From NCBI GenBank assembly GCA_017991395.1, contig JAGOQQ010000004.1, positions 32,430 through 96,429 of the forward strand: 64,000 bases of DNA, given 5' to 3'. Made by a program: the position numbers and the translations under genes. Position 1 is the stretch's first letter. Each line of letters starts with the position of its first letter. The notes under the pieces are model-generated. The model was not told where the DNA came from. It saw only the letters and a program-made list of their open reading frames with translations, and ran no database searches. The stretch comes from Minisyncoccota bacterium. GTDB taxonomy: Bacteria; Patescibacteriota; Minisyncoccia; Phycocordibacterales; UBA9973. Shown here in pieces: positions 1,045-26,415 of the stretch.

Positions 1045-1089
1045 ATTTGACCAGAGCATGTGTTTCTGGTACTATCTTCATATATCTTA

Positions 1090-1311
1090 ATGAGTGAAAA
1101 TAAAAACGAAAAAATAGCAACAGTGGAAGGTCATGTTACAGAAGCACTCCCAAGTACACTTTTTAGAGTGGAGCTTGCGGATGGCAAGGAGATACTCGCG
1201 TATCTTTCTGGAAAGATGAGAATGAACCGAATCAAGGTTCTTATTGGCGACAGGGTTGAAATTGTCGTCGATCCATACGGGGGAAAAGGGCGCATAGTGA
1301 GACGTGGGTAG
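1090..1311 (+). CDS. infA: Translation initiation factor IF-1
   Basis: The S1-like sequence ATVEGHVTEALPSTLFRVELADGKEI...GKMRMNRIKVLIGDRVEIVVDPY..KGRIV aligns with bacterial IF-1. Start taken at the internal ATG (MSENKNEK). Confidence 0.85.
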   Translation: MSENKNEKIATVEGHVTEALPSTLFRVELADGKEILAYLSGKMRMNRIKVLIGDRVEIVVDPYGGKGRIVRRG

Positions 1312-1434
1312 GTGAAAGCTTGCATTATTTTTAATTTTAAGTTATTATCATTGGACCGATTAGGTTGTGTATAGACACACTAAATTAAGGGACTTAATCC
1401 CTTAGTTTTACGTTGTATCCACAATAGATTTGTT

Positions 1435-1545
1435 ATGAAAGTCAAAGCTTCAGTAAAAAAAATGTGCGATAAATGCAAAATGGTCAAGCGAAAAGGCCAT
1501 CTTCGTGTTATTTGTGAAAACCCTAAACATAAGCAAAAACAATAA
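1435..1545 (+). CDS. rpmJ: 50S ribosomal protein L36
   Basis: Translating 1435-1545 by hand gives a 36-aa [39 protein letters not shown], carrying the L36 Cys/His zinc-ribbon signature. It is not in the ORF track because it is shorter than 60 aa. It sits between infA and rpsM as in canonical operons. Confidence 0.85.
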
Positions 1546-1550
1546 TTATT

Positions 1551-1931
1551 ATGAGAATTCTAGGTATTACAATTCCAAACGAAAAGCGATTAGATATTGG
1601 GCTCACAGCACTCTACGGCATCGGAATCTCTCGAGCACGAAAGATTCTTGACCAAGTAAAGATTGAGCACACACGAAAGTCAAAAGACCTCACGCCAGAT
1701 GAAGAAAACCAGATTCGTAAGGTGGTTGAAGAGCTCAAAATTGAAGGAAATCTAAAGCGTGAAATCAGTGCAAACATTAAGCGTTTGCGAGATATCAAAG
1801 CATACCGTGGTGTACGACACATGAGAGGACTCCCTGTAAACGGTCAGCGAACAAAGACAAATTCACGAACAGTTCGAGGAAACGTACGAAAGACTATGGG
1901 AAGTGGACGACGAAAGGTTGAGAAGACATAA
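1551..1931 (+). CDS. rpsM: 30S ribosomal protein S13
   Basis: MRILGITIPNEKRLDIGLTALYGIGISRARKIL is a typical S13 N-terminus, and the tail is basic. Confidence 0.95.
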   Translation: MRILGITIPNEKRLDIGLTALYGIGISRARKILDQVKIEHTRKSKDLTPDEENQIRKVVEELKIEGNLKREISANIKRLRDIKAYRGVRHMRGLPVNGQRTKTNSRTVRGNVRKTMGSGRRKVEKT

Positions 1932-1968
1932 TCACACTATTTAATTTAAACTAAGATTTTTACGATCA

Positions 1969-2406
1969 ATGGGTAAGAAAAAAATCATAACTAAAGACGG
2001 AGCAGAAGAAACAGTTGCAAAAGTAGCACCTGCTGTTTCTACTAAAACTCCAAAGAAGAAGATCACAGCAGTCACTCTTCACATCGAAGCAACATTTAAC
2101 AACACAAAATCTGTTGTTGCAGACAAAGAGGGAAATACTCTTTTCTGGTGTTCAGCTGGAGCACTAGGTTTTAAGGGTGCAAAAAAGGGTACTCCTTTTG
2201 CTGCGTCAAAGGTTGGAGAAACTCTCGCCGAAAAAGCGCAAGCTATTGGAATCAAAGAATTCGACGCGATTATCAGAGGCGTTGGTTCAGGACGTGAGCC
2301 AGTTATCAGAGGATTTATGTCTCGAGGATTTGAGCTTACTGGAGTCAAAGATATGACACCTGTTCCGCACAACGGACCAAAAGCTAAAAAGCCACGACGC
2401 GTATAA
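1969..2406 (+). CDS. rpsK: 30S ribosomal protein S11
   Basis: Carries the S11 motifs NTLFWCSAGALGFKGAKKGTPFAA and GVGSGRE. Confidence 0.95.
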   Translation: MGKKKIITKDGAEETVAKVAPAVSTKTPKKKITAVTLHIEATFNNTKSVVADKEGNTLFWCSAGALGFKGAKKGTPFAASKVGETLAEKAQAIGIKEFDAIIRGVGSGREPVIRGFMSRGFELTGVKDMTPVPHNGPKAKKPRRV

Positions 2407-2430
2407 CACTATAATCACTCATCACTATTT

Positions 2431-3033
2431 ATGATACACGGACCAAAATACAAACTGTGCCGACGACTAGGATCTCATGTGTTTGAAAAATGTCAAACAC
2501 AAAAATTCGTTCAGTCAGAAGCTAAAAAAGGAATGAAAAAGGGAAAGCGCCCAAAGGCACTTTCTGATTTCGGTACACAGCTTCTCGAAAAGCAGAGAAT
2601 TCGATTTTCATATGGAGTAAGTGAGAAGCAATTTTCAAACTACGTTAAGAAGGCTACTCACGGACAAGGACAAGCGACAGAAAAGCTTTACGAATCACTC
2701 GAAACACGACTCGACAATGTTGTATACCGCCTAGGACTCGCACACACACGAGCGCTTGCTCGACAAGTTGTGTCACACGGACATATTACTGTAAACGGTG
2801 TAAAGACACGCGTTCCGTCATATCAAGTAAAGATTGGAGACAAGATCACTATCCGAGAAGGAAGTAAGAAATCAACACTTTTCAATAGTCTCGAAACAAA
2901 ATTGAAAGATTATTCATGGCCGAATTGGCTCAAGTTTGACGTTGCTAAGGGTGAAGCAGTCGTTGAAGGAAAGCCTCGAAATGCAGATGGTGTGCTTAAT
3001 TTTAACACTGTACTTGAGTACTATAGTCGTTAG
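2431..3033 (+). CDS. rpsD: 30S ribosomal protein S4
   Basis: YRLGLAHTRALARQVVSHGHITVNG is the S4 domain. Confidence 0.95.
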   Translation: MIHGPKYKLCRRLGSHVFEKCQTQKFVQSEAKKGMKKGKRPKALSDFGTQLLEKQRIRFSYGVSEKQFSNYVKKATHGQGQATEKLYESLETRLDNVVYRLGLAHTRALARQVVSHGHITVNGVKTRVPSYQVKIGDKITIREGSKKSTLFNSLETKLKDYSWPNWLKFDVAKGEAVVEGKPRNADGVLNFNTVLEYYSR

Positions 3034-3079
3034 TCTCAGGAGTGTCCGCCCACTTATTTAGCGTGTACCAACATATTAT

Positions 3080-4042
3080 ATGTCTGACTATAAAATAATT
3101 TTACCATCAAAGCCTCGAATTGTTCTTGAAGAAGGAACAAAGGGTGTATATGAAATAGACGGTCTTTACCCAGGGTATGGACATACTCTTGGTAATTCCC
3201 TACGTCGAATTATCCTCTCATCTCTTCCAGGAGCTGCAATCACACTCGTGAAGATCGATGGAGTATCACATGAATTTTCAGTAATGGATGGTGTGAAAGA
3301 AGATGTGATCACAATCTTGCTCAACCTTAAAAAGGTTCGTTTCAAGGTAAGTTCAGATGAGCCACAAATAATTTCACTTTCAATAAAAGGACCAAAGTCA
3401 GTAACTGCAGGCGACATCAAAGCAGGTGGACAAGTAGAAGTACTTAACCCTGAACTCCATATTGCAGAGATAACAGCAAAAGTATCACTCGATATCGAAA
3501 TGACAGTAGAAAAAGGTCTCGGATTTGTTCCAAAAGATACTCACCAAAAAAGTAAAGTAGATGTAGGAACAATCGCACTAGATGCAATTTTCTCACCAGT
3601 ACGACGAGTACACTACGAAGTAGAGAACATGCGCGTAGGAGACAAGACAAACCACAATCGACTTCGAATCGGCATCGAGACAGACGGCACTATTGACCCA
3701 CGAGAAGCATTGGAGCAATCAATTTCAATCATGATTGAACAGCTTCAAGCAGTAGTGGATTTCAAGCCAACTCATGTGCCAAGCGAAACAACATCATCTC
3801 CTGAAGTTTCTGACGAAAAAGATTCAAAGGAAGATATGTCTGACGCAATGAAGACACGAATCGACACACTAGACCTTTCAACGCGAACAATGAACGCACT
3901 CCAAGCAGCAAATATCCGAACAGTTGGAGGAATTGCACGCAAAAAAGTCGAAGACCTTCTTGAAGTAGAAGGAATTGGAGACAAAGGTATCGAAGAAATC
4001 AAAGACGTGCTCAAAAACTTTGGTATCTCACTAAAAGATTAA
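3080..4042 (+). CDS. rpoA: DNA-directed RNA polymerase alpha subunit
   Basis: GHTLGNSLRRIILSSLPGAAI is the alpha N-terminal-domain motif, and a C-terminal HhH domain is present. Position after rpsD is typical. Confidence 0.95.
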   Translation: MSDYKIILPSKPRIVLEEGTKGVYEIDGLYPGYGHTLGNSLRRIILSSLPGAAITLVKIDGVSHEFSVMDGVKEDVITILLNLKKVRFKVSSDEPQIISLSIKGPKSVTAGDIKAGGQVEVLNPELHIAEITAKVSLDIEMTVEKGLGFVPKDTHQKSKVDVGTIALDAIFSPVRRVHYEVENMRVGDKTNHNRLRIGIETDGTIDPREALEQSISIMIEQLQAVVDFKPTHVPSETTSSPEVSDEKDSKEDMSDAMKTRIDTLDLSTRTMNALQAANIRTVGGIARKKVEDLLEVEGIGDKGIEEIKDVLKNFGISLKD

Positions 4043-7436: not shown

Positions 7437-7657
7437 TATAAACCCAATTTACCACTTTCCCACATATTTGCAAGAATTCAGCGGTCACGAAATACTTGTC
7501 AAAACCGTAAATATGAATATAATAGATGTATATCAGTTTATGAAAAGTTTTTAAATACTTTTAGCTTTAAAAAGTACAAGAGAAATTATTAGGAATTTAT
7601 AGCATTTTGTATTTAGCCAGTTGCTAGGCGCTAGATGCTAATTGCTGAAAAAAATAT

Positions 7658-9553
7658 ATGTCAAAAATAATTGGTATCGACTTGGGTACAACAAACAGTG
7701 CGGTCGCAATAATCGAAGGAGGAAATCCAAAGATTGTTGAGAATATCGAAGGATCACGCACCACACCGTCAATCGTTGGAATTGCAAAAAATGGTGATCG
7801 ACTTGCAGGACTTCTTGCAAAGCGACAAGCAGTAACAAATCCCGAAAACACAATTTACGGTATCAAAAGATTTATGGGTCATCATTTTGCTGATCCAGAA
7901 ATTCAGAAGGACCGAGGTGTAATGCCATACAAAATTCAGGAAGGAACAGATAAAGGTGTAGAAGTAAAACTCGGTGACAAGTTTATGCGACCAGAGGAAA
8001 TTTCTGCGATGATTCTTTCAAAGATCAAAGCTGATGTAGAAGCAAAACTTGGTGAAAAAGTTACCGAGGCAGTCATCACTGTGCCAGCATACTTCAATGA
8101 TGCACAACGAAAAGCAACAAAAGACGCCGGACAAATTGCAGGACTTGATGTGAAGCGTATCATCAACGAACCCACAGCAGCGGCACTTGCATACGGATTT
8201 AATTCAAAGAAAGATGAAAAGATTGTAGTGTACGACTTTGGAGGAGGAACATTTGATGTGTCTGTGCTTGAAGTATCTGGTGACGTGATCGAAGTGAAGT
8301 CGACAGATGGAGACTCGCACATGGGAGGACGAGATATTGATCGAAAAATCATAAATTGGATTGCAGACGAATTCAAAAAAGAATCTGGAATCGATGTAAC
8401 AAAAGATCCACTCGCACTTCAGCGTCTCGATGAAGCAGCTGAAAAAGCAAAACATGAACTTTCTACAACTCCTGAAACAGAAATCAATATTCCTTTCATC
8501 ACATCTGGTGCTGATGGACCAAAACACCTTCTTTTGAAGATGAGTAGAGCAACACTTGAATCACTTGCACAAGAATATGTGGATCGTTCAATCGAAATCA
8601 CGAAGCGCGCACTCGAAGCATCGCCATTTAAGATGAGTGAAATCAATGAAATCATTATGGTCGGAGGACAAACACGAATGCCGGCGATTGTGGATGCGGT
8701 CAAGAAATTCTTTGGTGGAAAAGAACCAAATCGTTCTATCAATCCAGACGAAGTAGTAGCACTTGGAGCAGCGGTGCAAGCTGGAGTGCTTCAAGGAGAT
8801 GTGAAAGATGTGCTTTTGCTCGATGTGATTCCACTTTCTCTCGGAATTGAAACACTTGGAGGAGTTGCGACAAAGCTTATCGAAAGAAACTCAACTATTC
8901 CAACTACAAAATCTCAAGTGTTTTCAACTGCAGCAGACAATCAAACATCGGTAGAAATTCACATCACACAAGGTGAACGTCCAATGGCAACAGACAACAA
9001 ATCTCTCGGACGATTTATTCTCGATGGGATTCCACCATCACCACGAGGTATTCCGCAGGTAGAAGTATCATTTGATGTTGATGCAAACGGTATCTTGCAA
9101 GTAAAAGCAAAAGACAAAGCTTCTGGAAAAGAACAGACAATTCGTATCGAAGCTTCATCAGGTCTTACAGATGAAGATATCAAAAAAATGCAATCAGATG
9201 CTGAAGCACATGCAGAAGAAGACAAGAAAAAGAAAGAAGTTGTGGATATCAAAAACACTGCAGAAATGACACTGTATACTGCTGAAAAATCTCTCAAAGA
9301 TGCTGAAGGAAAAGTGTCTGATGAAATAAAATCAGGAGTTCAATCAAAGATTGATGCAGTGAAAGCGGTAAAAGATGGAACTGATGGTAGTGCAATTATG
9401 AAAGCCACAGAAGAACTCTCAGCTGAGCTTTCAAAGATCGGCGAAGCGATGAACAAAGCACAAGAAGCACAACCTCAAGCAGAAACTCCTGCACAAGAAG
9501 AAAATGTGCGTGAAGCAGAAGTGAAAGAAGAGGGAAGTGAAGAAGCAAAATAA
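7658..9553 (+). CDS. dnaK: Chaperone DnaK (Hsp70)
   Basis: [14 protein letters not shown] and [10 protein letters not shown] motifs, with the full ATPase and substrate-binding domains. Confidence 0.97.
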
Positions 9554-9565
9554 CATAGACTAGAG

Positions 9566-9597
9566 CAAAAGAGCCTTATTTATAAGGCTCTTTTGCG
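9566..9597 (+). terminator. Terminator after dnaK
   Basis: aaagagccttatttataaggctcttt hairpin plus T-run. Confidence 0.55.
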
Positions 9598-9603
9598 TAT
9601 CTG

Positions 9604-10008
9604 TTGACTTTGTTGTTAATATATGCTACTATATATTCAAACAGAACACTAAAAACACAAAAAATGAAAACAAAAAACGTAGGCCCACATTATGCGGCAG
9701 AAAATCGCGAATGGAGAGCATTTGTGAAGTATGGACTTCCTGGGATCATCGTCTTAGTACTTTCCCTAGCTTCATTCCATGGTCTTGCGAGTAAGTATCC
9801 TGCATTGTTAGTTATATCACTTGTGGTGTTTCTCGCAGGTCTTTATTTTGATGGCAAAAAAAGTGTACACACAGTAGCAATGATAAAAATAATAAACGTT
9901 CTTATGGTGTTTATCGCAGTTACACTCCTCACAGGAAATGCACTCTTTGCAGTCGTTGGGATCTCTACAAGTTTCGTGCTTGCAATATTGATTCTCCAAA
10001 AAACTTAA
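9604..10008 (+). CDS. Small integral membrane protein, hypothetical
   Basis: Three hydrophobic helices. Start may be the internal MKTKN at 9664. A terminator hairpin follows at 10020-10046. Confidence 0.4.
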   Translation: MTLLLIYATIYSNRTLKTQKMKTKNVGPHYAAENREWRAFVKYGLPGIIVLVLSLASFHGLASKYPALLVISLVVFLAGLYFDGKKSVHTVAMIKIINVLMVFIAVTLLTGNALFAVVGISTSFVLAILILQKT

Positions 10009-11935: not shown

Positions 11936-12086
11936 TAAAAGGCAGGAGTTCAGAAGAGCGATAAGTGGAGAATAACTATAAGCGTAATATTTTTTAAAAC
12001 ACAAAGTTTATCTTGTGTCAATTTGACATTAATAATAAAAAAAGTATTATTATTAGTAATATGTTCAATCTATAAAAATAAATATC

Positions 12087-12278
12087 ATGATGAAAAGTTC
12101 TTTAAAACAAGAAACTCCTTACAAAAAGGTGCAACTTCCTGGCTTAGTCGGGGGTGGTTTAAAAAAATTGACAGGCAGAGTACCGCTCGTTTTAAAAAAA
12201 ATGGTTCGTTATCCTGGTGCTACTAGTTGGACGACTAGCGGTACTCATAACGATATTGATGGGTCTGACACAACTTGA
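12087..12278 (+). CDS. Candidate graspetide (microviridin-like) precursor peptide
   Basis: 63-aa ORF 78 nt upstream of the MdnC-like ATP-grasp and on the same strand. TTGACA at 12023 with a -10-like element near 12047. C-terminal Thr/Ser/Asp-rich stretch TSWTTSGTHNDIDGSDTT. Confidence 0.35.
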   Translation: MMKSSLKQETPYKKVQLPGLVGGGLKKLTGRVPLVLKKMVRYPGATSWTTSGTHNDIDGSDTT

Positions 12279-12355
12279 TAAAATATTTAACACACTATTA
12301 AAACACCTGCCTTTGTGGGTGTTTTGTTCATTTAAAACAGTATAAAAAAATAAAA

Positions 12356-13324
12356 ATGATATTAGCACTAGGTACATCGGCATCTCAAGATTTTGTTGCA
12401 TTTAAGGCAATAGAGAGTGAGTTAAAAAAACGAAAAAAGGAGATAATCTTATTCAAACAAGATTTATGTTTAAATAATGAAATTATTTCATATAAATTTA
12501 GCGAAAATGGTTCGTTTGTTCCATTAATTAATATTGAAGGAAAAAATTATGACATTGGCAGTTTTGAAGGCGCCATCAATCTTCACCCAATGCTTCCGAG
12601 AGAGCTCTTGGGTTTTTCAAAAATTAGCTTACGGCAATTTATCTGGAAACAATTTTATGAAATGCGTAGAGGTGTCTGGATGATTCTTAAAGATAAAAAA
12701 TGGCTAAATGATCCATTTAGTGCAGAGATGGCAGAGAATAAAGTATTTCAATTAGTTGCTGCTCAAAAAGTTGGGCTAACTATTCCGGCAACGCTAATTT
12801 CGTCATCTCCTTCAGATGTAAAAAATTTTTATTTAAAATGTGGCGGATTAATGATTAACAAAATTTTGTCTACTAGTCCAATTTTAGATAAAGTTACGTT
12901 TACTCACCTTGTTGATGAATGCGATATTGATGATAATTTGTCTATCCTCATTTCCCCAGCTATATTCCAGCCTCTTATTAAGAAAGAGTATGAATTAAGA
13001 ATAACTATAGTTGGAAATAAGTTGTTTTCAACCAAAATAAATTCACAGGAAAATTTGGCAACATCGATAGATTGGAGGGTTCATCCTGTAAAAAAGAAGT
13101 CATCTATACAAATGGAGCCGACTTTAATTCCACTAGAGCTAGAAGTTAAAATTCTTAATTTAATGAGACTATTAAACTTAAATTATGGTGCAGTTGACAT
13201 GATAGTCACACCACAAGGTGATTATGTGTTTCTCGAGATTAATCCATCAGGTCAGTGGTACTTTATACAAGAGAATACACGTTGCAATGATATTGCAAGT
13301 GCAATAGCAGATTTTTTATGCTAG
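12356..13324 (+). CDS. ATP-grasp RiPP maturase, MdnC/MvdD-like (graspetide ester/amide ligase)
   Basis: ELRITIVGNKLFSTKINSQ...DWR and LNYGAVDMIVTPQGDYVFLEINPSGQW match recalled microviridin ATP-grasp ligase MdnC segments (LRITIVG..INSQ..DWR; LNYGAIDMIVTP...FLEINP). N-terminal leader-binding region ILALGTSASQDFVAF. Confidence 0.8.
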   Translation: MILALGTSASQDFVAFKAIESELKKRKKEIILFKQDLCLNNEIISYKFSENGSFVPLINIEGKNYDIGSFEGAINLHPMLPRELLGFSKISLRQFIWKQFYEMRRGVWMILKDKKWLNDPFSAEMAENKVFQLVAAQKVGLTIPATLISSSPSDVKNFYLKCGGLMINKILSTSPILDKVTFTHLVDECDIDDNLSILISPAIFQPLIKKEYELRITIVGNKLFSTKINSQENLATSIDWRVHPVKKKSSIQMEPTLIPLELEVKILNLMRLLNLNYGAVDMIVTPQGDYVFLEINPSGQWYFIQENTRCNDIASAIADFLC

Positions 13325-13325
13325 T

Positions 13326-13811
13326 ATGGTAAACATGGTAATTCAATTACCATGTTTTTTTATGCAAAATAATATTTTACAGAACTTAATAAGTGAAATG
13401 TGTGAAATTGATCAAAAAACAAGAAAAATGGCTTTTGACCAAATTCAAAAAACAGGGGAAAGCTTCTCTATTTTTAATCTCATGATCTACTCTGTTGACG
13501 GCATTCATCAGCAGAGAATAAAACAAATTATAAAAGAATATGGTTATCCAACTAAAGAAAAAATTGGAGTAGATATTCTTAAGAAATTTTGGCTAATCGT
13601 TCAACATCAAGATATGGATGTATTTTTACAAAGAGAATGTCTGAAGAATTGTGATTTTGACATAGAAGAAAAGTCTCATCTGACGGATCGTGTCTTAATC
13701 AATGAGGGAAAAAAGCAAATGTATGGAACTCAGTTTTCGCAAGATATATCTGATGAAGACAGAATTATTTATAATAAAAACAGAGCAGAGGTCGGGTTGG
13801 TTGCTATATAG
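13326..13811 (+). CDS. Hypothetical protein, translationally coupled to the ATP-grasp
   Basis: Starts 2 nt after the ATP-grasp stop. No recognisable motifs. Confidence 0.45.
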   Translation: MVNMVIQLPCFFMQNNILQNLISEMCEIDQKTRKMAFDQIQKTGESFSIFNLMIYSVDGIHQQRIKQIIKEYGYPTKEKIGVDILKKFWLIVQHQDMDVFLQRECLKNCDFDIEEKSHLTDRVLINEGKKQMYGTQFSQDISDEDRIIYNKNRAEVGLVAI

Positions 13812-14020
13812 TTAACAGGAGGCACCAGAAATGGCGCTTTATGTATTGACAAAATAAGAAATAATGATATTATATAAACGTATGACATTTAGACATAAAA
13901 ACATTCGAAATATTGTGGCCCTCTCTGGGTACTGCAAACCAAATATTTTGGCTGGTTTTTGTGTTGTAAATTAAACTCACATTCTAAATTTTAGAACTCA
14001 AACACCAGCAAGAACTGCTG

Positions 14021-14626
14021 GTGTTTGTTCATTTAGAATTGAATATGAAAAATATCAAAACTCAATCAGTAATGTTTCTTCAAGGAAAGAGACTTTATCT
14101 GCGCCCTGTCGAGCGAAACGACATTCCTTTACTTCAAAAATGGATAAATGATCCAGAAGTAAGAAAATATCTCAATAATTCTTTTCCAATGTCATTAACA
14201 GACGAAGAAAAATATTTTGAAAGAATTTCGAATAGTTCGAAAAATGATGTTACTCTTGCGGTGGTAAGAAAGAAAGACAATGTACTACTTGGAAGTGTTG
14301 GTCTACATAAGATTGATTATATAAACGGCACTGCTTCTACGGGTTCAATGTATGGTAGAAAGTCGGAGTGGAACAAAGGGTATGCAACCGAAGCAAAAAT
14401 GATTTTGCTTGAGTATGCTTTTATGACACTTAATTTAAGGAAAATTTGCAGCGTTGCAATTTGTGGCAATATTGGGAGTATAAAACACAATATGAATTGT
14501 GGTTACAAGAAGGAAGGCATTAGGAAAAGTCATTATTTTCGTGACGGACAATATCATGACGCTGTGATGCTTGCGGTTTTCAAAAAAGATTGGGAAGAAG
14601 TTTTGAAGAAAAATTCAAAAAAATAA
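14021..14626 (+). CDS. GNAT family N-acetyltransferase (RimJ/RimL-like)
   Basis: KRLYLRPVERNDIPLLQKWINDPEV is the GNAT N-terminal pattern, and the acetyl-CoA-binding core is downstream. Terminator at 14632-14660. Confidence 0.7.
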   Translation: MFVHLELNMKNIKTQSVMFLQGKRLYLRPVERNDIPLLQKWINDPEVRKYLNNSFPMSLTDEEKYFERISNSSKNDVTLAVVRKKDNVLLGSVGLHKIDYINGTASTGSMYGRKSEWNKGYATEAKMILLEYAFMTLNLRKICSVAICGNIGSIKHNMNCGYKKEGIRKSHYFRDGQYHDAVMLAVFKKDWEEVLKKNSKK

Positions 14627-14715
14627 ACAGAAAAGGGCAGAGATGCCCTTTTTTTTATTTTTGACAAATAGAGTTTTTTGTTATATTATAATTAAAAATT
14701 AAAAACTAAATACAA

Positions 14716-15972
14716 ATGATAACACTACCTAAATTACCTGAAGTTCACATTGGAAAACTTTCCAATGGTATGAGATACGTCTTTGTTCCCGATAAAGGGA
14801 GCGGATTGATTCACGCTGAAGTGCTTGGATATGCCGGCTCAATACTGGAAACAGACCCAGGCACTTATGGAGTCTCTCATTTCCTTGAACATGTAGTTTG
14901 CAATGGTACAAAGAGTTTTCCTGATGAAGATGTACTTACTAATGAGTTTGATTTAATTGGAGCAAGTCGAAATGCAGTGACTGGTTTTACTACAAAAAGG
15001 TATCACCTTCAAACGGATTCTTCAAAAAGCAGAGAAGTAATAAAGTATATTTCTGAATGCATCCTTTGTCCAATTTTAGATAACACTATTATTGAAAGAG
15101 AAAGGTTGGTAATTCAAAGCGAGTTAAAAGATTCTCTTTCTAAGCCATTAGTGCGTGGGAGTATGAACTCTAGAAAAAAGTCGTTTGATCTTGCTCGTTT
15201 ACACGAACATAATCTTGGGACACATGAATCAATTGCAAATATCAAAAGAGATGATCTAATAAATTTTCACCAAAAATTTTATATGCCTTCAAATTTTATA
15301 TTTGGAGTTATGGGTGACATTGATCATTTGGAACTAGTGAGTATTCTAGAAGATGAAATCGGATTCGCACCAAGTGGTAATACGCAAAGTAAAATTTGGG
15401 TTGAGCACAAAAAGAATGGTAAATTTATTTCTTCTGATAAAGGCATCGAAAATTCATCAGTTGAAATCTGTTGGCCACTAACTCAAGAGCAAATATTACA
15501 CGATTACCACAACATATGTAAGCTAATTTCTGTTCTTGGGTCAATGAGAAGGTCAAGACTCTATAGGGTATTAAGAGAAAAACTCTCATCTGTGTACGGT
15601 GTGCATATGGGTTTATCCGGATACAGTAGCTTCAGTTCGTTTTGTTCGATCGATACATCGACAGACAGAGATTCTGTTGATGCTGTCATTGATGCATCTA
15701 TTGAATGTGTGAGATCTTTCTTAAATGATGGGCCTACTGAGAAGGAGATTACGCAGAGCATTAACCAAACAGTATTTTGGATGAAGAAAGAAATGGCTAA
15801 TAAAATGTCTGTACTCAAAAATACAATGGGTGACGTCCTATTTAATCCAAACTTCGTATCTGTAGAAAATGAAATAAATAAATTATTGTCATTTGAAAAA
15901 GATGAGTCGATTGAGGCATTCCGCTCGTGTATTAAGGGAGATCCAGTGATTATAGTTAGAAATCCTGTTTAA
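14716..15972 (+). CDS. M16 (pitrilysin) family zinc peptidase
   Basis: Inverted zinc motif HxxEH in GVSHFLEHVV near the N-terminus. Size fits one M16 unit. Confidence 0.65.
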   Translation: MITLPKLPEVHIGKLSNGMRYVFVPDKGSGLIHAEVLGYAGSILETDPGTYGVSHFLEHVVCNGTKSFPDEDVLTNEFDLIGASRNAVTGFTTKRYHLQTDSSKSREVIKYISECILCPILDNTIIERERLVIQSELKDSLSKPLVRGSMNSRKKSFDLARLHEHNLGTHESIANIKRDDLINFHQKFYMPSNFIFGVMGDIDHLELVSILEDEIGFAPSGNTQSKIWVEHKKNGKFISSDKGIENSSVEICWPLTQEQILHDYHNICKLISVLGSMRRSRLYRVLREKLSSVYGVHMGLSGYSSFSSFCSIDTSTDRDSVDAVIDASIECVRSFLNDGPTEKEITQSINQTVFWMKKEMANKMSVLKNTMGDVLFNPNFVSVENEINKLLSFEKDESIEAFRSCIKGDPVIIVRNPV

Positions 15973-16666: not shown

Positions 16667-17227
16667 ATGAAAAAGCTAAATTCAGAAGTGTGGGGAAAGG
16701 TTAAAAATATTGACCTCTCACAAATCCTCGTTAGACTAGTTGTAAAACAAAAATGGTCAATAGAGCGAGCAACGGAAGCAATTGAACAGTATAGGCAGTT
16801 CTTGTATTGCTGTGTAGTATTCCCAGGATCATCTTTAGAGCCAACAAGTGAAGTAGATGTTGTGTGGCATGATCATATACTTCATATGAAAAAGTACAAT
16901 GAGGACTGTATCAAATTATGTGGACGGTTGATATTACATGAGCCTTATCCTGTCAATGAAGATGTTGCGAGTGAAATTTTTAAAGCATGCAAGAAGACAG
17001 GTGGTGATTGTCGACTTGAATCTGCTGATCGAGGTGAAGAAACAAACCCTATTCTGATTATTGATGATAAAATCAAAACAGAAATTATCGCAACTAGAAC
17101 AGCTGAATGCACAGGAGATTGCCAGGCAACTACTGGTTGTCAAGAACCACCACCTGCCGACTGCGCATTAAATCGCAATTCTAAAAAAATGGATTTTAAA
17201 AAAATTAGAGCTGAAATTTTTGCTTAA
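16667..17227 (+). CDS. Hypothetical protein; N-terminal region resembles DUF1399 (EVDVVWHDHILH), C-terminus Cys-rich
   Basis: Motif recollection only. C-terminal CTGDCQATTGCQ cluster. Confidence 0.4.
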   Translation: MKKLNSEVWGKVKNIDLSQILVRLVVKQKWSIERATEAIEQYRQFLYCCVVFPGSSLEPTSEVDVVWHDHILHMKKYNEDCIKLCGRLILHEPYPVNEDVASEIFKACKKTGGDCRLESADRGEETNPILIIDDKIKTEIIATRTAECTGDCQATTGCQEPPPADCALNRNSKKMDFKKIRAEIFA

Positions 17228-18382: not shown

Positions 18383-18631
18383 ATGTCGAAAAATTCGTCG
18401 TCTGATAATGGAGATGGTACATCATCGTTTATAAGCGGACCAACAAACCACAACAGTAACTCAAGTCAAGGATCTTCAATACAAAGTGATAAATACACTA
18501 TAAACAATGAGGATAAGGGCAAGCCGGACACTCCAAAAGTTCATGAATATTCTGGAAGAAGTCATGATAAAGGAGTTTCTTATGAAGGAGGTCGTGGTGA
18601 AAATTATAACACTAACGATAGTGGAAAATAA
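18383..18631 (+). CDS. Small Ser/Asn/Gly-rich hydrophilic protein
   Basis: Strong Shine-Dalgarno sequence aaggaggataaggaaATG. Low-complexity composition. Confidence 0.4.
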   Translation: MSKNSSSDNGDGTSSFISGPTNHNSNSSQGSSIQSDKYTINNEDKGKPDTPKVHEYSGRSHDKGVSYEGGRGENYNTNDSGK

Positions 18632-19912: not shown

Positions 19913-20263
19913 ATGGAAAGTATTGAAGAAAAAACATATAAGCTAAGTAGCACCGACAAATTTTTGATGGTTGTTTTTATTGTCTTAATTGGAAGTGCTT
20001 TTATCTCTAATTTTTACCATTTCTATATAAACAAGAATTACACATATATTATTGAAACAGAATGTGATTCAGAGTTTGAAACTTGCTATATAGGAGAGGA
20101 TGATGGAGGGCAATTTTTTTATAATGTCAAGACCATTAATGCATACGATTTTTCAGCGTGTAGTGATAATTCTTGCACAAATGAATGTACAAGTGGCTTT
20201 TTAGAATGCATCACCATTCCATGCGGGACAGATCCTGCTGATGTTTGTTCAAAGAATGAATAA
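19913..20263 (+). CDS. Small Cys-rich protein with N-terminal membrane anchor
   Basis: One transmembrane helix (FLMVVFIVLIGSAFI), then 10 Cys in 70 residues (ECDSEFETCY...CSDNSCTNECTSGFLECITIPCG). Confidence 0.4.
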   Translation: MESIEEKTYKLSSTDKFLMVVFIVLIGSAFISNFYHFYINKNYTYIIETECDSEFETCYIGEDDGGQFFYNVKTINAYDFSACSDNSCTNECTSGFLECITIPCGTDPADVCSKNE

Positions 20264-21107
20264 TAAAATGATTAAAGAAAATTTAGATTTTCATACTGAC
20301 ATCGTATATAGTGACGAAATTAAAGAACAGGTTGAATATCTGATGAAAAATCGTGATGCATTTGATTCGTATGTATATACCTCCGTTGATGAAATTCTTA
20401 ATACTAATAAGTCAGTGCAAATCGAATGCAAAAAAAAGGTTGATTATATACTCAATCCTAATATTAAAAGCAAGTTAAATGGTATTTTATTTAGACAAAT
20501 AAATACACCAAATTACGAAACTCGACGATTTCATCAAATTTGTGAGGGGTATGGAATCAAGCCTTTTTTTGTTCAGTATAAAGAGGATAAATTTACTTCA
20601 AATAACTCACTTAAACGAAGTTACGGAAAAATACCCTGTGTGGTTGGTACTGATAAAAATGGGCAGTACATTATAAACTATGTCAATGTAATAGATTTTA
20701 ATCAAAGTAACGGTAAGAAAATTTCTGATATAAAGACATTACAAGGTGAAAATTTAGTTGAACTACACAATAAACTCTTGTTAGATCAAATACCTTCAAT
20801 CCATGAAAGTTCACTTGTGGAGGCCTCACGATGGTTCAAGAACAATGGTGATTGTGCAGGAAAGTATTATCTCAATTTATTGCTAAATTTTCAGACAGAC
20901 ACTTTTCTATTTGATAATTTTTCATTAAATGGAGAAGAGGAAGTATTTACCAGGAACGTTTTTTTGCCAACATTGATTCACATTAGAAATACGTATGGAA
21001 TAAAACCTATCATTATTGCTTTGGAGCCAACGGAGATTGAGAATAATTTGTTTTGGATTGCTCAGACTCCGGAAGTTTATAGTATAATTAAAAAATACAA
21101 TGATTGA
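20241..21107 (+). CDS. Hypothetical protein
   Basis: Overlaps the upstream gene by 23 nt and the downstream kinase by 8 nt, so they form an operon. Confidence 0.4.
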   Translation: MFVQRMNNKMIKENLDFHTDIVYSDEIKEQVEYLMKNRDAFDSYVYTSVDEILNTNKSVQIECKKKVDYILNPNIKSKLNGILFRQINTPNYETRRFHQICEGYGIKPFFVQYKEDKFTSNNSLKRSYGKIPCVVGTDKNGQYIINYVNVIDFNQSNGKKISDIKTLQGENLVELHNKLLLDQIPSIHESSLVEASRWFKNNGDCAGKYYLNLLLNFQTDTFLFDNFSLNGEEEVFTRNVFLPTLIHIRNTYGIKPIIIALEPTEIENNLFWIAQTPEVYSIIKKYND

Positions 21108-22725
21108 AAATACCTGCACTTTATACGGGAGTGCATATCACACAATTGCATATTATTCTCATCTCGTGCCGGCATTTCTTATAGGAACTCTGGCTGTTTT
21201 GATTTTAATGAAAAACAGAAGTTCATTAATAATCACATTTTGTTTATTTACCGCAACATTTATCTTGTGGTTGCTTGGAGATCTTATAGCCTGGACATCG
21301 CCAAATTACAATCTGATTTCTGCCGTGTGGTCATCACTTGATTTACTCAACATACTTTTTTATATTTTTGGTGCATATTTTTTTACGACACTAGTCAGCG
21401 GAAAAGATGTCAGTTTGTGGATAAAGGTTGCTATTGTGCTGGTGACATTGCCTGCTTGGTATATTACAGTTTCAAATATTAGTATTTCTTCATTCTACTT
21501 GCCTCAGTGTGAAGCAATCAATAATACCTTTCTTACAAATTACAAGATATTAATTGAAGCACTTGTAGTCTTGTTCATTGTTATATATGGTTACATTAAA
21601 TCACGAAAACTGGAGCCAGTTAGAAGAAAAAAAGTTGCACTTGTTGCAGCTGGGCTTATTTTATTCTTTGCAACATTTTCTGTAACTGAATTTATAGCTA
21701 GTCAAACAGGTATATATGAAATAAACTTGTATAGCCTTTTCGTCCTACCTGTTTTCCTTGGAATGATTATTTATGCAACAGTTTCTATGAATATATTCCA
21801 ACTCAAAATTATTGGCGAGCAGGCAATGATTTATGTACTTTTGATTATGGTCGGCTCTCAAATGTTCATACTTGAGAATAGGGACAACAGAATACTTTCG
21901 GTTATTACATTCCTGTTATCATTATTCTTTGCATATGTGTTACTTCAGAGTTCACGAAGAGAAGCAATGGCAAAGCGACACATTGAAGAACTCGTATTCC
22001 AACTCGAAGAAGCAAACTCAAAATTGCATGATCTCGACAAGATGAAAACAGAATTCCTCTCACTCGCATCTCATCAGCTTCGTAGTCCACTTACCGCAAT
22101 CAAGGGTTATGCATCGATGCTTCTTGAAGGTTCGTATGGGCAAATCGTCCCAGAACAAAAAGTACCAGTAGATCGAATCTTTCAATCAAGTGTAAACTTG
22201 GCGCAAATCGTGGAAGACTTGCTTGATGTGTCAAAAATGGAACAAGGTGGAATGAAATTCGAAATGGCAGACGTGGACCTAGTGGGAATCTTGAAAGGTC
22301 TGACAAATGAGCTTCAGGTTTCTGCAAAAAGTCGAAATCTTGATCTTGTGTTCGAAACAAATCTTACAGAAGCAATTGTGGAAGTAGACTCAGTAAAAAT
22401 TCGTCAAGTGTTTGCAAACTATGTAGACAATGCACTCAAGTATACAGAAAAAGGAACAGTCAAAATCTCAATTGCAAAATCAGATGACGGAAAAAAGATT
22501 GTGGTTGGAGTCAAGGATTCAGGAATGGGTATTCCTCCAGAGATTATGAAAACACTCTTCAAAAAGTTTGAACGTGGAGAGGGCGGAAAGGTCAACGCGG
22601 GAGGTTCAGGACTTGGGCTATATCTCGCAAAAGAAATCGTCAACGCACACAAAGGACGCACTTGGGCTGAATCAGAAGGACGAGGCAAGGGAAGTACATT
22701 TTTTGTGGAGCTTAGTTTGAAATAA
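21100..22725 (+). CDS. Membrane-bound sensor histidine kinase (orphan; no response regulator nearby)
   Basis: N-terminal multi-transmembrane sensor region. HisKA H-box LSLASHQLRSPLTAIKGY. HATPase_c region with GGSGLGLYLAKEIVNAHKG. Confidence 0.8.
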   Translation: MIENTCTLYGSAYHTIAYYSHLVPAFLIGTLAVLILMKNRSSLIITFCLFTATFILWLLGDLIAWTSPNYNLISAVWSSLDLLNILFYIFGAYFFTTLVSGKDVSLWIKVAIVLVTLPAWYITVSNISISSFYLPQCEAINNTFLTNYKILIEALVVLFIVIYGYIKSRKLEPVRRKKVALVAAGLILFFATFSVTEFIASQTGIYEINLYSLFVLPVFLGMIIYATVSMNIFQLKIIGEQAMIYVLLIMVGSQMFILENRDNRILSVITFLLSLFFAYVLLQSSRREAMAKRHIEELVFQLEEANSKLHDLDKMKTEFLSLASHQLRSPLTAIKGYASMLLEGSYGQIVPEQKVPVDRIFQSSVNLAQIVEDLLDVSKMEQGGMKFEMADVDLVGILKGLTNELQVSAKSRNLDLVFETNLTEAIVEVDSVKIRQVFANYVDNALKYTEKGTVKISIAKSDDGKKIVVGVKDSGMGIPPEIMKTLFKKFERGEGGKVNAGGSGLGLYLAKEIVNAHKGRTWAESEGRGKGSTFFVELSLK

Positions 22726-22778: not shown

Positions 22779-22838
22779 TAAAAATTGACAAACTGTCAAA
22801 GAGTGATATTATGACGTAAAATCTAAAAAACAAATAAA

Positions 22839-23843
22839 ATGGAGAAAAAACTTTTAATAATTAGCAATTCTGATGAATTGTATTATTACAAACCCGTTAT
22901 TAAGGTTATTAATGAGATTTACAATCACGATGTGTATGTATTTGATTTCAATCAATATCCACGCACTGCGACAATGTCGGTGTCATTAAGTAATAGCAGG
23001 AAAGTGTGTGGGTCACTCAAAACGACACAGTGGAGTAAAGGGCAATCAAGAAAAGGTGTCATGCTTGAAATTAATGATGTATTTAAAGTGTGGCCGATAC
23101 GCATTGGTAATACCAATATAAGCCCTGAACTAGATCCTGTCTCTGCTTTTTTTGCAAAAAAGCAGGCGCACTATGCGATTGAGTCTTTGCTTGCACTTTT
23201 TGAGTGTGAGGTAATAAATCCTCCACGTATCGCTAGATTTGTACAGCACAATAAGTTATATCAATTAGAAATTGCAAAATGGGCAGGATTATCGATTCCC
23301 GATACACTAGTATCATCCAATTATTCTGATGTGTGTGAGTTTGCAGAAAAATGTGGTGGTAGTATGTTAGTAAAATCAATATACACAATGCCGTTCTTAA
23401 ACGAAGACACCAAGGAAATGTTTGGTATATATTCAAGTATTATTACAAAAAGAGAACTTACTTCCTTTTCAGTAAAAGCTTGTCCAAATATCTATCAAGC
23501 ATATATTGAAAAGAAAGTGGAACTACGGATTTCGTACGCCAATGGGAAAATTATGACTTGTTCCATTGATTCGCAATTAAGCGAAAAAACCAAGATTGAT
23601 TGGCGTAATTATGACTTTGGTAATGTTAAACATACTACTTACAAATTACCTAAAGACATTCAGAGAACACTTGTAAAATATATGACACGCATAGGGTTAA
23701 AGTATGGGCAAATAGACATGATACTTACCCCTAATGACGAGTATGTATTTTTGGAAGTAAATCCGTCTGGGCAATGGGGATGGATTCAAGGATTGACTGG
23801 CCTTGAGATTGATCATTCAATTGCTAAGATGCTCATTGAATAG
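22839..23843 (+). CDS. Second ATP-grasp RiPP maturase, MdnB/MdnC-like
   Basis: VELRISYANGKIMTCSIDSQ...DWRNY and LKYGQIDMILTPNDEYVFLEVNPSGQW. N-terminus LLIISNSDELYYYKPVIKVINEI. Paralogous to the 12356 ATP-grasp gene. Confidence 0.8.
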   Translation: MEKKLLIISNSDELYYYKPVIKVINEIYNHDVYVFDFNQYPRTATMSVSLSNSRKVCGSLKTTQWSKGQSRKGVMLEINDVFKVWPIRIGNTNISPELDPVSAFFAKKQAHYAIESLLALFECEVINPPRIARFVQHNKLYQLEIAKWAGLSIPDTLVSSNYSDVCEFAEKCGGSMLVKSIYTMPFLNEDTKEMFGIYSSIITKRELTSFSVKACPNIYQAYIEKKVELRISYANGKIMTCSIDSQLSEKTKIDWRNYDFGNVKHTTYKLPKDIQRTLVKYMTRIGLKYGQIDMILTPNDEYVFLEVNPSGQWGWIQGLTGLEIDHSIAKMLIE

Positions 23844-23860
23844 TAAAAACCCTTTGGAAT

Positions 23861-24700
23861 TTAATTTCCAGGGGGTTTTCTTAATCCTAATTCAATTAAA
23901 TATGGCATTGTCATTTCTTCAAATGTCGGTTCGTATTTAATTAACTTTTCAAATACAGTTACGAACTTTTTTTTAATCGTACTCAACATTTCTTTATTAT
24001 TCTTTTTTAGCTTTTCGTACATGTACAGTCTCGCAAGATAATTTTGATACGCTGAGTACAAACTCATGACTGAACTTTTTTCTGACAATTTATTTTCATA
24101 CGATAGGAGTTTTTTAAACCCGACAGTAGTTTCAAGATTGATTTTCTTTTTGTCCAAGACTAAACTAGCAATATGATTTAAAACTTTACCTGCTTTTTTA
24201 TAAGAAAGTATCAACATTGAAACATCTTTTGCACTCAGTGAATTTTTGCCGTTTGAATAAAAATAATTAGAAATTCTTTTGTATGTTTCAAAGTCATTTG
24301 ACAAAGTATGGTTATATATATCAAATACCGCACTTGCGACATGTCGTGAGGTAGGGAAAACACTCAACATTTTATCTGCAATCGCTTCGTTCGTAGTTTG
24401 TGTAAAAAATTGGTATCCTGAAAGAATCAATGTTTTGTTTTTGGTAGTAGAAATTTGGTCAATCAAACTCAAATACAAGCTCGCCCAATCTTCAGTAAGA
24501 ATTTGTTCATTGTAGTTGGTCTCAAGCTCGAGTAGTAAATTGGTTAACTTTTTATTATGAATGTCGGTATGTGTGGCAATTTCCTCCTCTGATAACTCAA
24601 TAGAATAAAGAATTTTCGAAAAATCTTCAATAATTTTGTAGTATTTTCTTTTGAAGACTAGTAATGAGTTCATACTGGACATTATTGCATAAAAAAACAA
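23861..24700 (-). CDS. Hypothetical protein
   Basis: ORF downstream of the small peptide gene on the minus strand. Convergent on the ATP-grasp, with the bidirectional hairpin 23848-23880 between them. Confidence 0.4.
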   Translation of the reverse strand: MFFYAIMSSMNSLLVFKRKYYKIIEDFSKILYSIELSEEEIATHTDIHNKKLTNLLLELETNYNEQILTEDWASLYLSLIDQISTTKNKTLILSGYQFFTQTTNEAIADKMLSVFPTSRHVASAVFDIYNHTLSNDFETYKRISNYFYSNGKNSLSAKDVSMLILSYKKAGKVLNHIASLVLDKKKINLETTVGFKKLLSYENKLSEKSSVMSLYSAYQNYLARLYMYEKLKKNNKEMLSTIKKKFVTVFEKLIKYEPTFEEMTMPYLIELGLRKPPGN

Positions 24701-24737
24701 AAGTAGGCAATAAGTGAATATTGCCTACTGAATTGAA

Positions 24738-24947
24738 TTAGTCTCCTTCGTCAAACTTATAATCGCTCTTTACTCCTGTTGCGTAATGAGTGTGGCAACC
24801 TGCAGCTGCGCATACTCCGGGAGATGTTTGAGTTGGAATTGGTTTAAGTTGACCAATAAGTAGTGGTTTTCGCTTGTTTCTCAACAAGGATTCATTAAAG
24901 ACAGTAATTTTTGATTCACGTACTGCTTGCTTTGATGATGTTTTCAT
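24738..24947 (-). CDS. Small 69-aa protein, candidate RiPP precursor
   Basis: C-terminal TGVKSDYKFDEGD contains the Thr/Lys/Ser/Asp/Glu set of microviridin cores (TxKxPSDxEE). Consensus promoter immediately upstream. Confidence 0.3.
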   Translation of the reverse strand: MKTSSKQAVRESKITVFNESLLRNKRKPLLIGQLKPIPTQTSPGVCAAAGCHTHYATGVKSDYKFDEGD

Positions 24948-24979
24948 GACTTCGGTTTTTGAAAGATTAAATTAGCTAT

Positions 24980-25007
24980 ATTATAGATTGTAGTTTTCAA
25001 TTGTCAA
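24980..25007 (-). promoter_or_regulatory. Near-consensus sigma70 promoter (TTGACA-N16-TATAAT) for the small ORF
   Basis: Minus-strand reading is ttgacaattgaaaactacaatctataat. Confidence 0.6.
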
Positions 25008-25038
25008 TACTGTCTTTTTACATCTGTAGAATATCAAT

Positions 25039-26415
25039 TTATTTCACTTCAATATCCGGACCGTCGGGTGTGTCGTTGATTTCAAAACCAAGCGTACTGA
25101 TTTGATTACGAAGCATATCTGAAGTTGCCCAATCTTTTTCTTTTCGTGCATCTTCACGTTGATTCACCAATTCACGAATATTTTCCGGTACTACTACGTT
25201 AGAAATTGCTCCTAGTCCGAGCCCGAGAACTTTGTCGAAATAAAGTGCAGTCGCATATTTGTCTTCTTTTGATACTTCAGTATCTTTCAAGAGTTCCCAG
25301 AGTGTTGCAACAGCATCAGCGGTGTTCAAATCATTTGATAACGCCGTCTCAAAGCGTTCCTTGTACAAAGAGTGTACATTTCCTATTCCAGCATTCTTTA
25401 GTGTGCGTACGTGAGAATAGAGACGTTTGAGGGCTTGTGAGGGTCCTTCTAGGGATTCCCATTTGAAGTTCATTACTGTTTTATAGTGCGCACCAAGAAC
25501 CCAAAGTCTGTATGCGACAGGATTGAATCCTTTGTCGATAAGTGTTCGAAGTGTAATGAAATTTTCACCAGACTTTGCCATTTTGTCTTCACCAATATTT
25601 ACAAAGTCAGAGTGGAGCCAATACTTTACATACTGCACGCCTGTTACTGATTCTGATTGTGCGATCTCATTGTTGTGATGAACTGGAATATGGTCAATTC
25701 CGCCTGTGTGAATATCAAAAGTATCACCAAGATATTTTCGTGACATTGCTGAACATTCAATGTGCCAGCCGGGAAATCCTTTTCCAAACGGGGCGTCATA
25801 ACCGAGTTCTTCGTTCCATTTCCAAATTGCAAAGTCGCGGGGATTTTTCTTTTCGTCATTTAGTCCGATTCGTGAATGTTCGCCATCAAGTGAGACAACA
25901 CCACCAAGTGCACCATATGACGGAAATGTCGCTGTATCAAAATATATTCCATCACTTGTTTTGTAGGCGTGATTCTTTTCAAGAAGAGTATTTACCATTT
26001 CGACATCCTCGGCAATATGATCTGAGGCAAAAGGGAAATGAGTTGCGGGTGTGATGTTGAGTGAGTTTAAATCTTCTTTGAATTTTTCAAAATAAAAATC
26101 TGCGACTTCTCGCATAGCTTGAAGTGTCATTGGTTTTCCTTCGCGCTTGAGTGCTTTGGACATTTTGTCCTCACCGTCGTCGCCGTCACTTGAAAGATGA
26201 CCAATGTCAGTCACGTTGATCACTTGAGTTACTTCGTATGAAGCGAGCTCGAGAGTCTTTCTTAAAACATCAGCAAAAATATACGCACGGAGATTTCCGA
26301 TGTGCGCATAGTTGTAGACTGTTGGACCACAGTTGTACATTCCGACTTTGTTGTCGGAAATGGGTGAAAACTGTTCTATTTTCTTGGTCAGAGTGTTGTA
26401 AAATTTTAGATCCAT
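25039..26415 (-). CDS. cysS: Cysteinyl-tRNA synthetase
   Basis: MYNCGPTVYNYAHIGNLRAY (HIGN motif), DKMAKSGENF (KMSKS variant), and Cys/His zinc ligands. Confidence 0.9.
   Translation of the reverse strand: MDLKFYNTLTKKIEQFSPISDNKVGMYNCGPTVYNYAHIGNLRAYIFADVLRKTLELASYEVTQVINVTDIGHLSSDGDDGEDKMSKALKREGKPMTLQAMREVADFYFEKFKEDLNSLNITPATHFPFASDHIAEDVEMVNTLLEKNHAYKTSDGIYFDTATFPSYGALGGVVSLDGEHSRIGLNDEKKNPRDFAIWKWNEELGYDAPFGKGFPGWHIECSAMSRKYLGDTFDIHTGGIDHIPVHHNNEIAQSESVTGVQYVKYWLHSDFVNIGEDKMAKSGENFITLRTLIDKGFNPVAYRLWVLGAHYKTVMNFKWESLEGPSQALKRLYSHVRTLKNAGIGNVHSLYKERFETALSNDLNTADAVATLWELLKDTEVSKEDKYATALYFDKVLGLGLGAISNVVVPENIRELVNQREDARKEKDWATSDMLRNQISTLGFEINDTPDGPDIEVK

Follow-up and report, generated by a model that had tools for sequence, protein, structure and literature searches.

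A predicted three-gene graspetide module with a convergent precursor gene in a Patescibacterial genome

Introduction

Two ATP-grasp ligases of the graspetide type are encoded within the 64-kb stretch of DNA analysed here (contig JAGOQQ010000004.1 of assembly GCA_017991395.1, hereafter the window), which has a G+C content of 37% and whose closest public relatives are metagenome-assembled genomes (MAGs) of Candidatus Paceibacterota (Patescibacteria, or candidate phyla radiation, CPR). The second of these ligases, ATP-grasp 2, is converged upon by a small gene of the opposite strand, ORF69 (an open reading frame, ORF, of 69 residues), and by a gene for a protein of about 270 residues that follows it. 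The locus therefore poses the question of whether ATP-grasp 2 is one half of a microviridin-like pathway, shared with the first ligase (ATP-grasp 1), or forms a unit of its own with the two genes that face it. The analysis points to the second answer: ATP-grasp 2, ORF69, and the 270-residue protein (together, cluster 2) probably constitute a self-contained three-gene graspetide module of the Patescibacterial (CPR) type. Modules of this type have already been catalogued for CPR bacteria by genome mining, and the chemistry at this locus is predicted; this one has a divergent ligase, a new precursor sequence, and an orphan accessory protein. CPR graspetide clusters are known from genome mining alone, none having been characterised, and the compactness of the present module—three genes, clear promoters, and a core of 17–20 residues—makes it a convenient test case for the use of peptides by reduced-genome symbionts.

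The ligase and its convergent small gene

An initial annotation, made from the sequence of the window, had marked an ATP-grasp gene, a promoter, a 69-residue ORF, and a following ORF at this locus, and all four were found where it placed them. ATP-grasp 2 (22839–23843, plus strand) is a protein of 334 residues comprising a pre-ATP-grasp N-terminal domain and a catalytic domain, and its assignment as a graspetide macrocyclase is upheld by NCBIfam as well as by solved graspetide ligases. Three NCBIfam models align with it nearly end to end, namely TIGR04185 (MvdC, 4.5e-55), TIGR04184 (MvdD, 4.2e-53), and GRASP_SAV_5884 (2.7e-49), with all three scores well under the equivalog cut-offs, and its matches in the PDB are AMdnB (7m4s, 5.8e-40), MdnC (5ig9, 1.8e-33), MdnB (5ig8, 6e-33), and also CdnC. 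Pfam returns only a weak match, to the pre-ATP-grasp domain PF21068 (0.0048). In an alignment of 24 family sequences, the protein agrees at all 41 invariant positions, those of the EVNPSGQW motif among them. The annotation had further held that no precursor lies upstream, and indeed the 113-nt gap 5′ of position 22839 is devoid of any ORF: it contains a hairpin that closes the preceding histidine kinase gene, then the ligase's own promoter (22785–22812, plus strand; TTGACA-N16-TATTAT with a TG extension, 11/12 consensus positions), and nothing more.

ORF69 (24738–24947, minus strand) is convergent with ATP-grasp 2 and lies 0.9 kb from it. The promoter that drives it (24980–25007, minus strand), previously described as near-consensus, is in fact an exact TTGACA-N16-TATAAT (12/12) and the sole perfect instance of this arrangement on both strands of the window, where 0.12 would be expected from base composition. 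Both hexamers are intact in the relative GCA_031972675.1 (L001), which, together with two further assemblies, carries an orthologue of ORF69 with 87% identity at the same place. In the comparison of the window with L001, the nonsynonymous and synonymous divergences (pN/pS) are 0.069/0.212 for ORF69, 0.054/0.238 for ATP-grasp 2, and 0.064/0.311 for the 270-residue gene; ORF69 is thus in line with both of its neighbours, is under purifying selection, and behaves as a real gene. Residues 44–69 differ from the orthologue by five synonymous codon changes and the single replacement V59T, and the leader stretch K25–P38 is unchanged.

Three elements can be recognised within the peptide, whose C-terminus reads ...CHTHYATGVKSDYKFDEGD. 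A leader motif, P28-L-L-I-G-Q-L followed by K-P-I-P (24846–24866, minus strand), is identical in the orthologue; a Cys/His patch, C46-AAAG-C51-H52-T53-H54 (24786–24812, minus strand), lies at the junction of leader and core, with synonymous changes only in L001; and the predicted core, T53-HYA-T57-GVKSDYKF-D66-EG-D69 (24741–24791, minus strand), also includes K60, S61, D62, K64, and E67. ORF69 combines, 0.9 kb from the ligase, a leader with candidate Thr, Ser, and Lys donors and Asp and Glu acceptors (T53, T57, K60, S61, D62, K64, D66, E67, D69), and it is very likely the cognate precursor of ATP-grasp 2. A word-based protein search with ORF69 returned one cluster, at 87% identity, and for this reason membership of a precursor family is argued from context and signature; a metagenome scan for relatives with a degenerate DNA pattern for EKTKIDWRNYDF found nothing. 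That ORF69 might be a small housekeeping protein was rejected, as it is confined to two protein clusters among 5.8 billion.

Relationship to Branch 1 loci

A scan of GTDB species genomes for such ligases yielded 80 loci, and a neighbour-joining (NJ) distance tree of their ligases places ATP-grasp 2, on a long branch, as sister to a clade formed by 12 Patescibacterial loci (L003, L005, L006, L007, L010, L013, L016, L017, L019, L026, L038, L059), its nearest ligase clade, with which it shares 35–40% identity. In 11 of these 12 loci, a small ORF lies downstream of the ligase and convergent with it, and the encoded peptides form a clear family with the leader ...TPLLLRR[IM]xxKPxV and the core H[MF]T[VI]V[TS]TxGxxPEMxDQxED. 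The peptide of L013 is KKU81073.1 from Parcubacteria GW2011_GWA1_47_8, which is listed as precursor cluster 4012, with a ligase of 'Branch_1', in the supplement of Makarova et al. (2022; PMC8939145). That work described CPR graspetide loci with a Pro-hydrophobic leader, located in the first ~30 residues, of the form Phhx(1,2)h, a Branch 1 core of the form TxxxTx(6-10)Dx(1-4)D, and accompanying tetratricopeptide repeat (TPR) or 'cluster 23' proteins, and it also described non-orthologous displacement of accessory genes at such loci. In the NJ tree, which carries no support values, ATP-grasp 2 appears beside, and not within, the clade that holds the Branch_1 member of GW2011_GWA1_47_8.

The ORF69 core conforms to the published signature as T53-x3-T57-x8-D66-x2-D69, and in an ungapped overlay on HMT-IVT-T-QGFKPEMV-D-GEE-D both threonines and the first aspartate line up. 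Similarly, P28-LLIGQL-KPIP parallels the PLLLRRI-xx-KPxV of Branch 1 precursors, in the form Phhh-xx-h, which agrees with the leader signature only when its spacing is relaxed to x(1,3). The fit was measured against 330 six-frame ORFs of 40–120 residues in the window, with the core sought in the last 30 residues: the core signature occurs in 3 of them, and core plus relaxed leader in two, ORF69 and ORF63, each of which lies beside a ligase. Among 20,000 shuffles of ORF69, 0.27% contained the core signature and 0.02% contained core and leader together. The gene order also has counterparts, since in L005, L019, and L038 precursor and accessory gene follow one another and converge on the ligase exactly as in the window, the accessory protein of L038 being a TPR protein. 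Cluster 2 resembles Branch 1 loci in its phylum-level group, its downstream convergent precursor with a Pro-hydrophobic leader and the core signature, and its one poorly understood accessory gene. It differs from them in that the sequence of ORF69 is otherwise unrelated, with two lysines and a Cys/His patch whose paired cysteines are absent from Branch 1 precursors, and in that its accessory protein is an orphan in place of a TPR, 'cluster 23', or other accessory protein. A literature search with the strings MTVVTT and PLLLRR returned nothing relevant.

The accessory protein

The gene after ORF69 (23861–24673, minus strand) had been annotated as encoding 279 residues, and an ORF of that length does begin at TTG 24700; the real start, however, is probably ATG 24673, giving 270 residues, because it is the start chosen by gene callers and the one at which P0118, a homologue of 49% identity, begins. 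No family in Pfam, NCBIfam, or PADLOC accounts for the protein. An exhaustive HMMER search of 1.84 billion representatives recovered only near-identical copies and P0118 (268 residues, 49% identity), from which we conclude that this is an orphan family, and a scan of metagenomes with its alignment found nothing. Judged from these sequences, its divergence seems to have kept pace with that of this ligase lineage, and no other occurrence of it is known.

The AlphaFold2 model of the protein is all-helical, with 11 helices (predicted local distance difference test, pLDDT, 70.5; predicted template modelling score, pTM, 0.60), and Foldseek finds for it only weak, non-significant matches to TPR and other helical-repeat proteins (E at least 0.034). 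Comparison by hhalign with DUF6624, with a family of ~172–207 residues, and with the TPR protein of L038 gave probabilities below 1%, and a Pfam search gave no DUF6624 or TPR match, which leaves the protein outside the 'cluster 23' and TPR kinds associated with Branch 1. Domain and structure searches disclosed no catalytic motif, cofactor-binding domain, or enzyme-like fold. Since the protein has no detectable sequence kinship to the other accessory families, it fits the non-orthologous displacement of Makarova and colleagues; the module is one more case of such accessory-gene replacement, and the current view of graspetide biosynthesis is unchanged by it.

The order of ligase (plus strand), ~270-residue protein (minus strand), and small ORF (minus strand) is seen again in L001. 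It recurs beside P0005, a ligase 50% identical to ATP-grasp 2 on contig ERZ27296333 (ENA), where a 268-residue and then a 57-residue gene, both on the minus strand, follow in the same order and the upstream genes are unlike those of the window in size and strand; P0118 is probably the 268-residue neighbour of P0005. The identities of the genes, their conservation, and their linkage are shown, as is the fit of ORF69 to the core motif.

Several points weigh against reading cluster 2 as a self-contained module. The linkage is drawn from two independent lineages only, and in a word-based search no similarity was detected between ORF69 and the 57-residue ORF beside P0005. A profile hidden Markov model (HMM) of the 12 Branch 1 peptides gives ORF69 2.6 bits, a score equalled by 12 of 1000 shuffles (p about 0.012), and the homology of ORF69 to those precursors is accordingly weak. 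Taken literally, the published Phhx(1,2)h matches neither ORF69 nor the PLLLRRI motif of cluster 4012 itself, and the leader expression used here allowed a wider spacing, x1-3. The tree was built simply from distances, carries no support values, and puts ATP-grasp 2 on a long branch. The module contains no peptidase or exporter. Finally, macrolactone or macrolactam links on ORF69 are predicted, the module being known here from its genes alone.

Alternative explanations

The initial annotation had placed a further graspetide-type ligase some 10 kb away, and this is ATP-grasp 1 (12356–13324, plus strand), at a distance of 10.5 kb. It belongs to cluster 1 (12023–13811, plus strand), in which a promoter is followed by ORF63 (12087–12278), a hairpin, the ligase, and a DUF6624 gene (13326–13811). 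Because microviridin maturation employs an adjacent pair of ligases, MdnB and MdnC, it is conceivable that ATP-grasp 2 acts in trans as the amide (or ester) ligase alongside ATP-grasp 1 on one precursor, either ORF63 or ORF69, and the proximity of the two ligases, the presence of Lys in ORF69 besides Thr, Ser, Asp, and Glu, and the occurrence of GNAT and M16 peptidase genes after cluster 1 when cluster 2 has no peptidase of its own count in favour of such a split pathway. The ligases themselves give it little room. Neither groups with the MdnB (amide) or the MdnC (ester) type, their bit scores against 5ig8 and 5ig9 being practically equal (117.6 and 119.3 for ATP-grasp 2; 121.3 and 117.3 for ATP-grasp 1), and both lie far under the equivalog cut-offs of MvdC and MvdD (187 and 180.6 bits for ATP-grasp 2, and 181 and 177.5 for ATP-grasp 1, against 425 and 475). 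The two are 36% identical over the C-terminal, catalytic-half 212 residues only and, in the NJ tree, belong to separate clades of Patescibacteria; beside each ligase stand a distinct precursor family and a promoter of its own. L001 retains the whole of cluster 2 and has no cluster 1 in the interval from DnaJ to the histidine kinase; a further Paceibacterota locus, L059, also pairs the two module types, with a separate precursor for each; and one ligase suffices for characterised graspetides other than microviridins, such as plesiocin and thuringinin (PMC8939145). As for the peptide, the residue composition that had been likened to the microviridin core TxKxPSDxEE is indeed there (Thr, Lys, Ser, and acidic residues), but the likeness is compositional only, because the spacing differs (T-GV-K-S-D-YKF-D-E); a microviridin-type core was rejected, as ORF69 has no TxKxPSDx(D/E)(D/E) spacing, and the microviridin leader string PFFARFL does not occur in ORF69. 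We regard the split pathway as highly improbable. Own promoters and precursors, membership of different clades, equal MdnB/MdnC scores, and the lack of cluster 1 in L001 together favour two independent modules over one split pathway, and of the two arrangements originally envisaged it is the second independent graspetide unit that is supported: ORF69 is conserved as a gene and accompanies ligases of this lineage, and its leader and core agree with the signature published for the nearest ligase clade, in which precursors are likewise convergent.

A different objection is that the adjacency is fortuitous, with ORF69 and the 270-residue protein forming an unrelated operon of two genes (such as one for a small protein and its helical partner) and ATP-grasp 2 being an orphan whose substrate lies elsewhere or does not belong to the ribosomally synthesised, post-translationally modified peptides (RiPPs). 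The opposite strands and separate promoters would suit this, as would the statistically weak homology of ORF69 to known precursors and the lack of a recognisable RiPP-related domain in the 270-residue protein; we nonetheless hold it to be unlikely, in that the three genes stay together at ~50% protein identity on a contig whose upstream genes appear to differ, the 270-residue family has essentially no other occurrences, loci of the sister clade have convergent precursors as a rule, chance seldom produces such a fit to the published signature, and a reading of the flanks for ORFs offered no further candidate small ORF beside the ligase. An extension of the three-gene module, and not a competitor to it, would be that C46-x4-C51-H52-x-H54 provides a second site, of modification or metal binding, on which the 270-residue protein acts, the product being more than a plain graspetide. 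The patch is kept in the orthologue with synonymous changes only, its paired cysteines have no equivalent in Branch 1, and the accessory protein is unique to this lineage; conserved cysteines in new graspetide precursors have been noted as possible sites of extra modification (PMC8939145), and other graspetides are now known to depend on partner proteins and tailoring enzymes (PMC13097080). The 270-residue protein, however, is without enzymatic features, conservation of the patch says little when just two closely related peptide sequences are to hand, and the patch may merely mark the leader/core junction or a cleavage site, so that a dual modification appears as doubtful as a chance adjacency.

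Among known systems, cluster 2 resembles microviridin (MdnA/B/C, graspetide group 1) in the ATP-grasp superfamily of its ligase, the pre-ATP-grasp domain, and—predicted in its case—leader-guided side-chain macrocycles formed from Thr/Ser/Lys and Asp/Glu; it differs in having one ligase per module in place of the adjacent pair. With plesiocin/PsnB and thuringinin (group 2) it shares the expectation that one ATP-grasp makes every link on a Thr...Asp/Glu core, yet the kinship is very remote: PsnB (7drm) gives no match to ATP-grasp 2 and a marginal one to ATP-grasp 1, and ORF69 has other leader and core motifs and a core without repeats. RODEO graspetide group 42, which is DUF6624-associated and found in candidate phyla (PMC13097080, Fig. 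S19), bears on cluster 1, in which DUF6624 follows the ligase: the core of ORF63, ...TTSGTHNDIDGSDTT, is similar to the group representative, ...TTHGTPNDPDSGGTD, as well as to the peptide upstream of the second ligase in L059. ATP-grasp 2, in contrast, belongs to another clade and has no DUF6624 neighbour.

Proposed biosynthesis

On the reading of cluster 2 as a three-gene module, we infer the pairing of enzyme and substrate, the ring pattern, the attenuation, and the accessory role as follows. ORF69 would be transcribed from its very strong promoter, and the stem-loop after it would pass part of the transcripts into the accessory gene, leaving the precursor in excess. This stem-loop with its T-run (24702–24729, minus strand; −15.7 kcal/mol, z −6.1), which is present in L001 except for one stem base, is likely an attenuating terminator, and the same layout is repeated after ORF63 in cluster 1 (12299–12326). 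ATP-grasp 2, expressed from its own promoter on the opposite strand, would bind the leader around P28-LLIGQL and, with ATP, activate core Asp/Glu side chains as acyl phosphates. Omega-esters would then form by attack of Thr/Ser hydroxyls on these phosphates, or possibly omega-amides by that of Lys amines. By comparison with the family, two or more rings may be expected within the last 17 residues, and analogy with the published signature suggests T53 and T57 with D66 and D69 as the likeliest pairs, which would yield nested or hairpin-like rings. A hairpin of 14 bp with A- and T-runs on its flanks (23846–23879) lies between the convergent genes, overlaps the 3′ end of the 270-residue gene, and is likely a bidirectional terminator, with folding energies of −19.4 kcal/mol on the plus strand (z −4.3) and −14.8 kcal/mol on the minus strand (z −3.5).

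The 270-residue helical protein would serve as a dedicated accessory, be it a ligase partner or scaffold, a leader peptidase, a tailoring enzyme, or an immunity protein. There is a parallel with MirC of the rosaritide system (Carter et al. 2026; PMC13097080), which is likewise a strictly co-occurring, lineage-specific, non-enzyme-looking protein beside a ligase. MirC, however, is peptidyl-prolyl isomerase-like, unlike the all-alpha orphan described here, and a dependence of ATP-grasp 2 on the 270-residue protein is pure conjecture.

Neighbouring genes and related loci

Directly upstream of ATP-grasp 2 and possibly linked to it (20241–22725, plus strand), a gene for a 288-residue protein (20241–21107) overlaps that of a multi-pass membrane sensor histidine kinase of 541 residues (21100–22725; Pfam HisKA and HATPase_c). 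A PDB profile search with the 288-residue protein was negative, and its single-sequence structure model (pLDDT 32) was useless. The same partner protein is found again in L001, L007, and L016, where the regions corresponding to the partner and kinase genes are 7442–9888, 1137–3887, and 747–3217, and no response regulator was seen beside the kinase. Full-length homologues of the kinase (30%–35% identity, membrane domain included) lie within 4 kb of graspetide ligases in ~9 other Patescibacterial lineages, and a link between this kinase and graspetide ligases in CPR bacteria was not reported by Makarova et al. (2022; PMC8939145). It is imaginable, if rather improbable, that the 270-residue protein is an obligate partner or new tailoring factor, acting possibly on Cys-x4-Cys-His-x-His, and that the finished peptide is sensed by the histidine kinase. 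Were this so, the module would belong to a peptide-signalling circuit in ultra-small symbiotic bacteria and would not produce a protease inhibitor.

Synonymous divergence between the window (22839–26415) and L001 (10001–13577) is 0.21–0.31 for the three module genes and 0.64 for the adjacent cysteinyl-tRNA synthetase; it may be that lineages exchanged the module at a later time than its flank.

After cluster 1 come a GNAT acetyltransferase (14021–14626) and an M16 peptidase (14716–15972), which could be the tailoring and leader-removal enzymes of that cluster; L001 lacks this entire stretch (12023–15972) at the syntenic site. In L059 (243–5259), a locus of a Paceibacterota MAG, both module types are contained within 5 kb: one reads DUF6624, ligase, and precursor (...GGTSIGTHDEPDSAGLD) from left to right, all transcribed leftwards, and the other consists of a ligase of Branch 1 type and a precursor convergent with it (...HMTVVTTAGAQPEMHDQQED). 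Other Patescibacterial ligase clades (L008, L012, L014, L018, L023, L025, L027) have same-strand precursors upstream of their ligases, and the leaders in this set (PFLTRFAEKP, PFALRFAER, PFPVRFAER) recall the PFFARFL of microviridins, with cores like TYLGxTxxxxGDYxNDD.

Two further small genes of the window lie on the plus strand between cluster 1 and the histidine kinase. One (16667–17227) encodes a protein of 186 residues with a weak match to a GRDP-like glycine-rich domain and a Cys-rich tail. The other (18383–18631) is a low-complexity ORF of 82 residues rich in Ser, Asn, and Gly, and the gene called at its counterpart in L001 has a DUF397 match.

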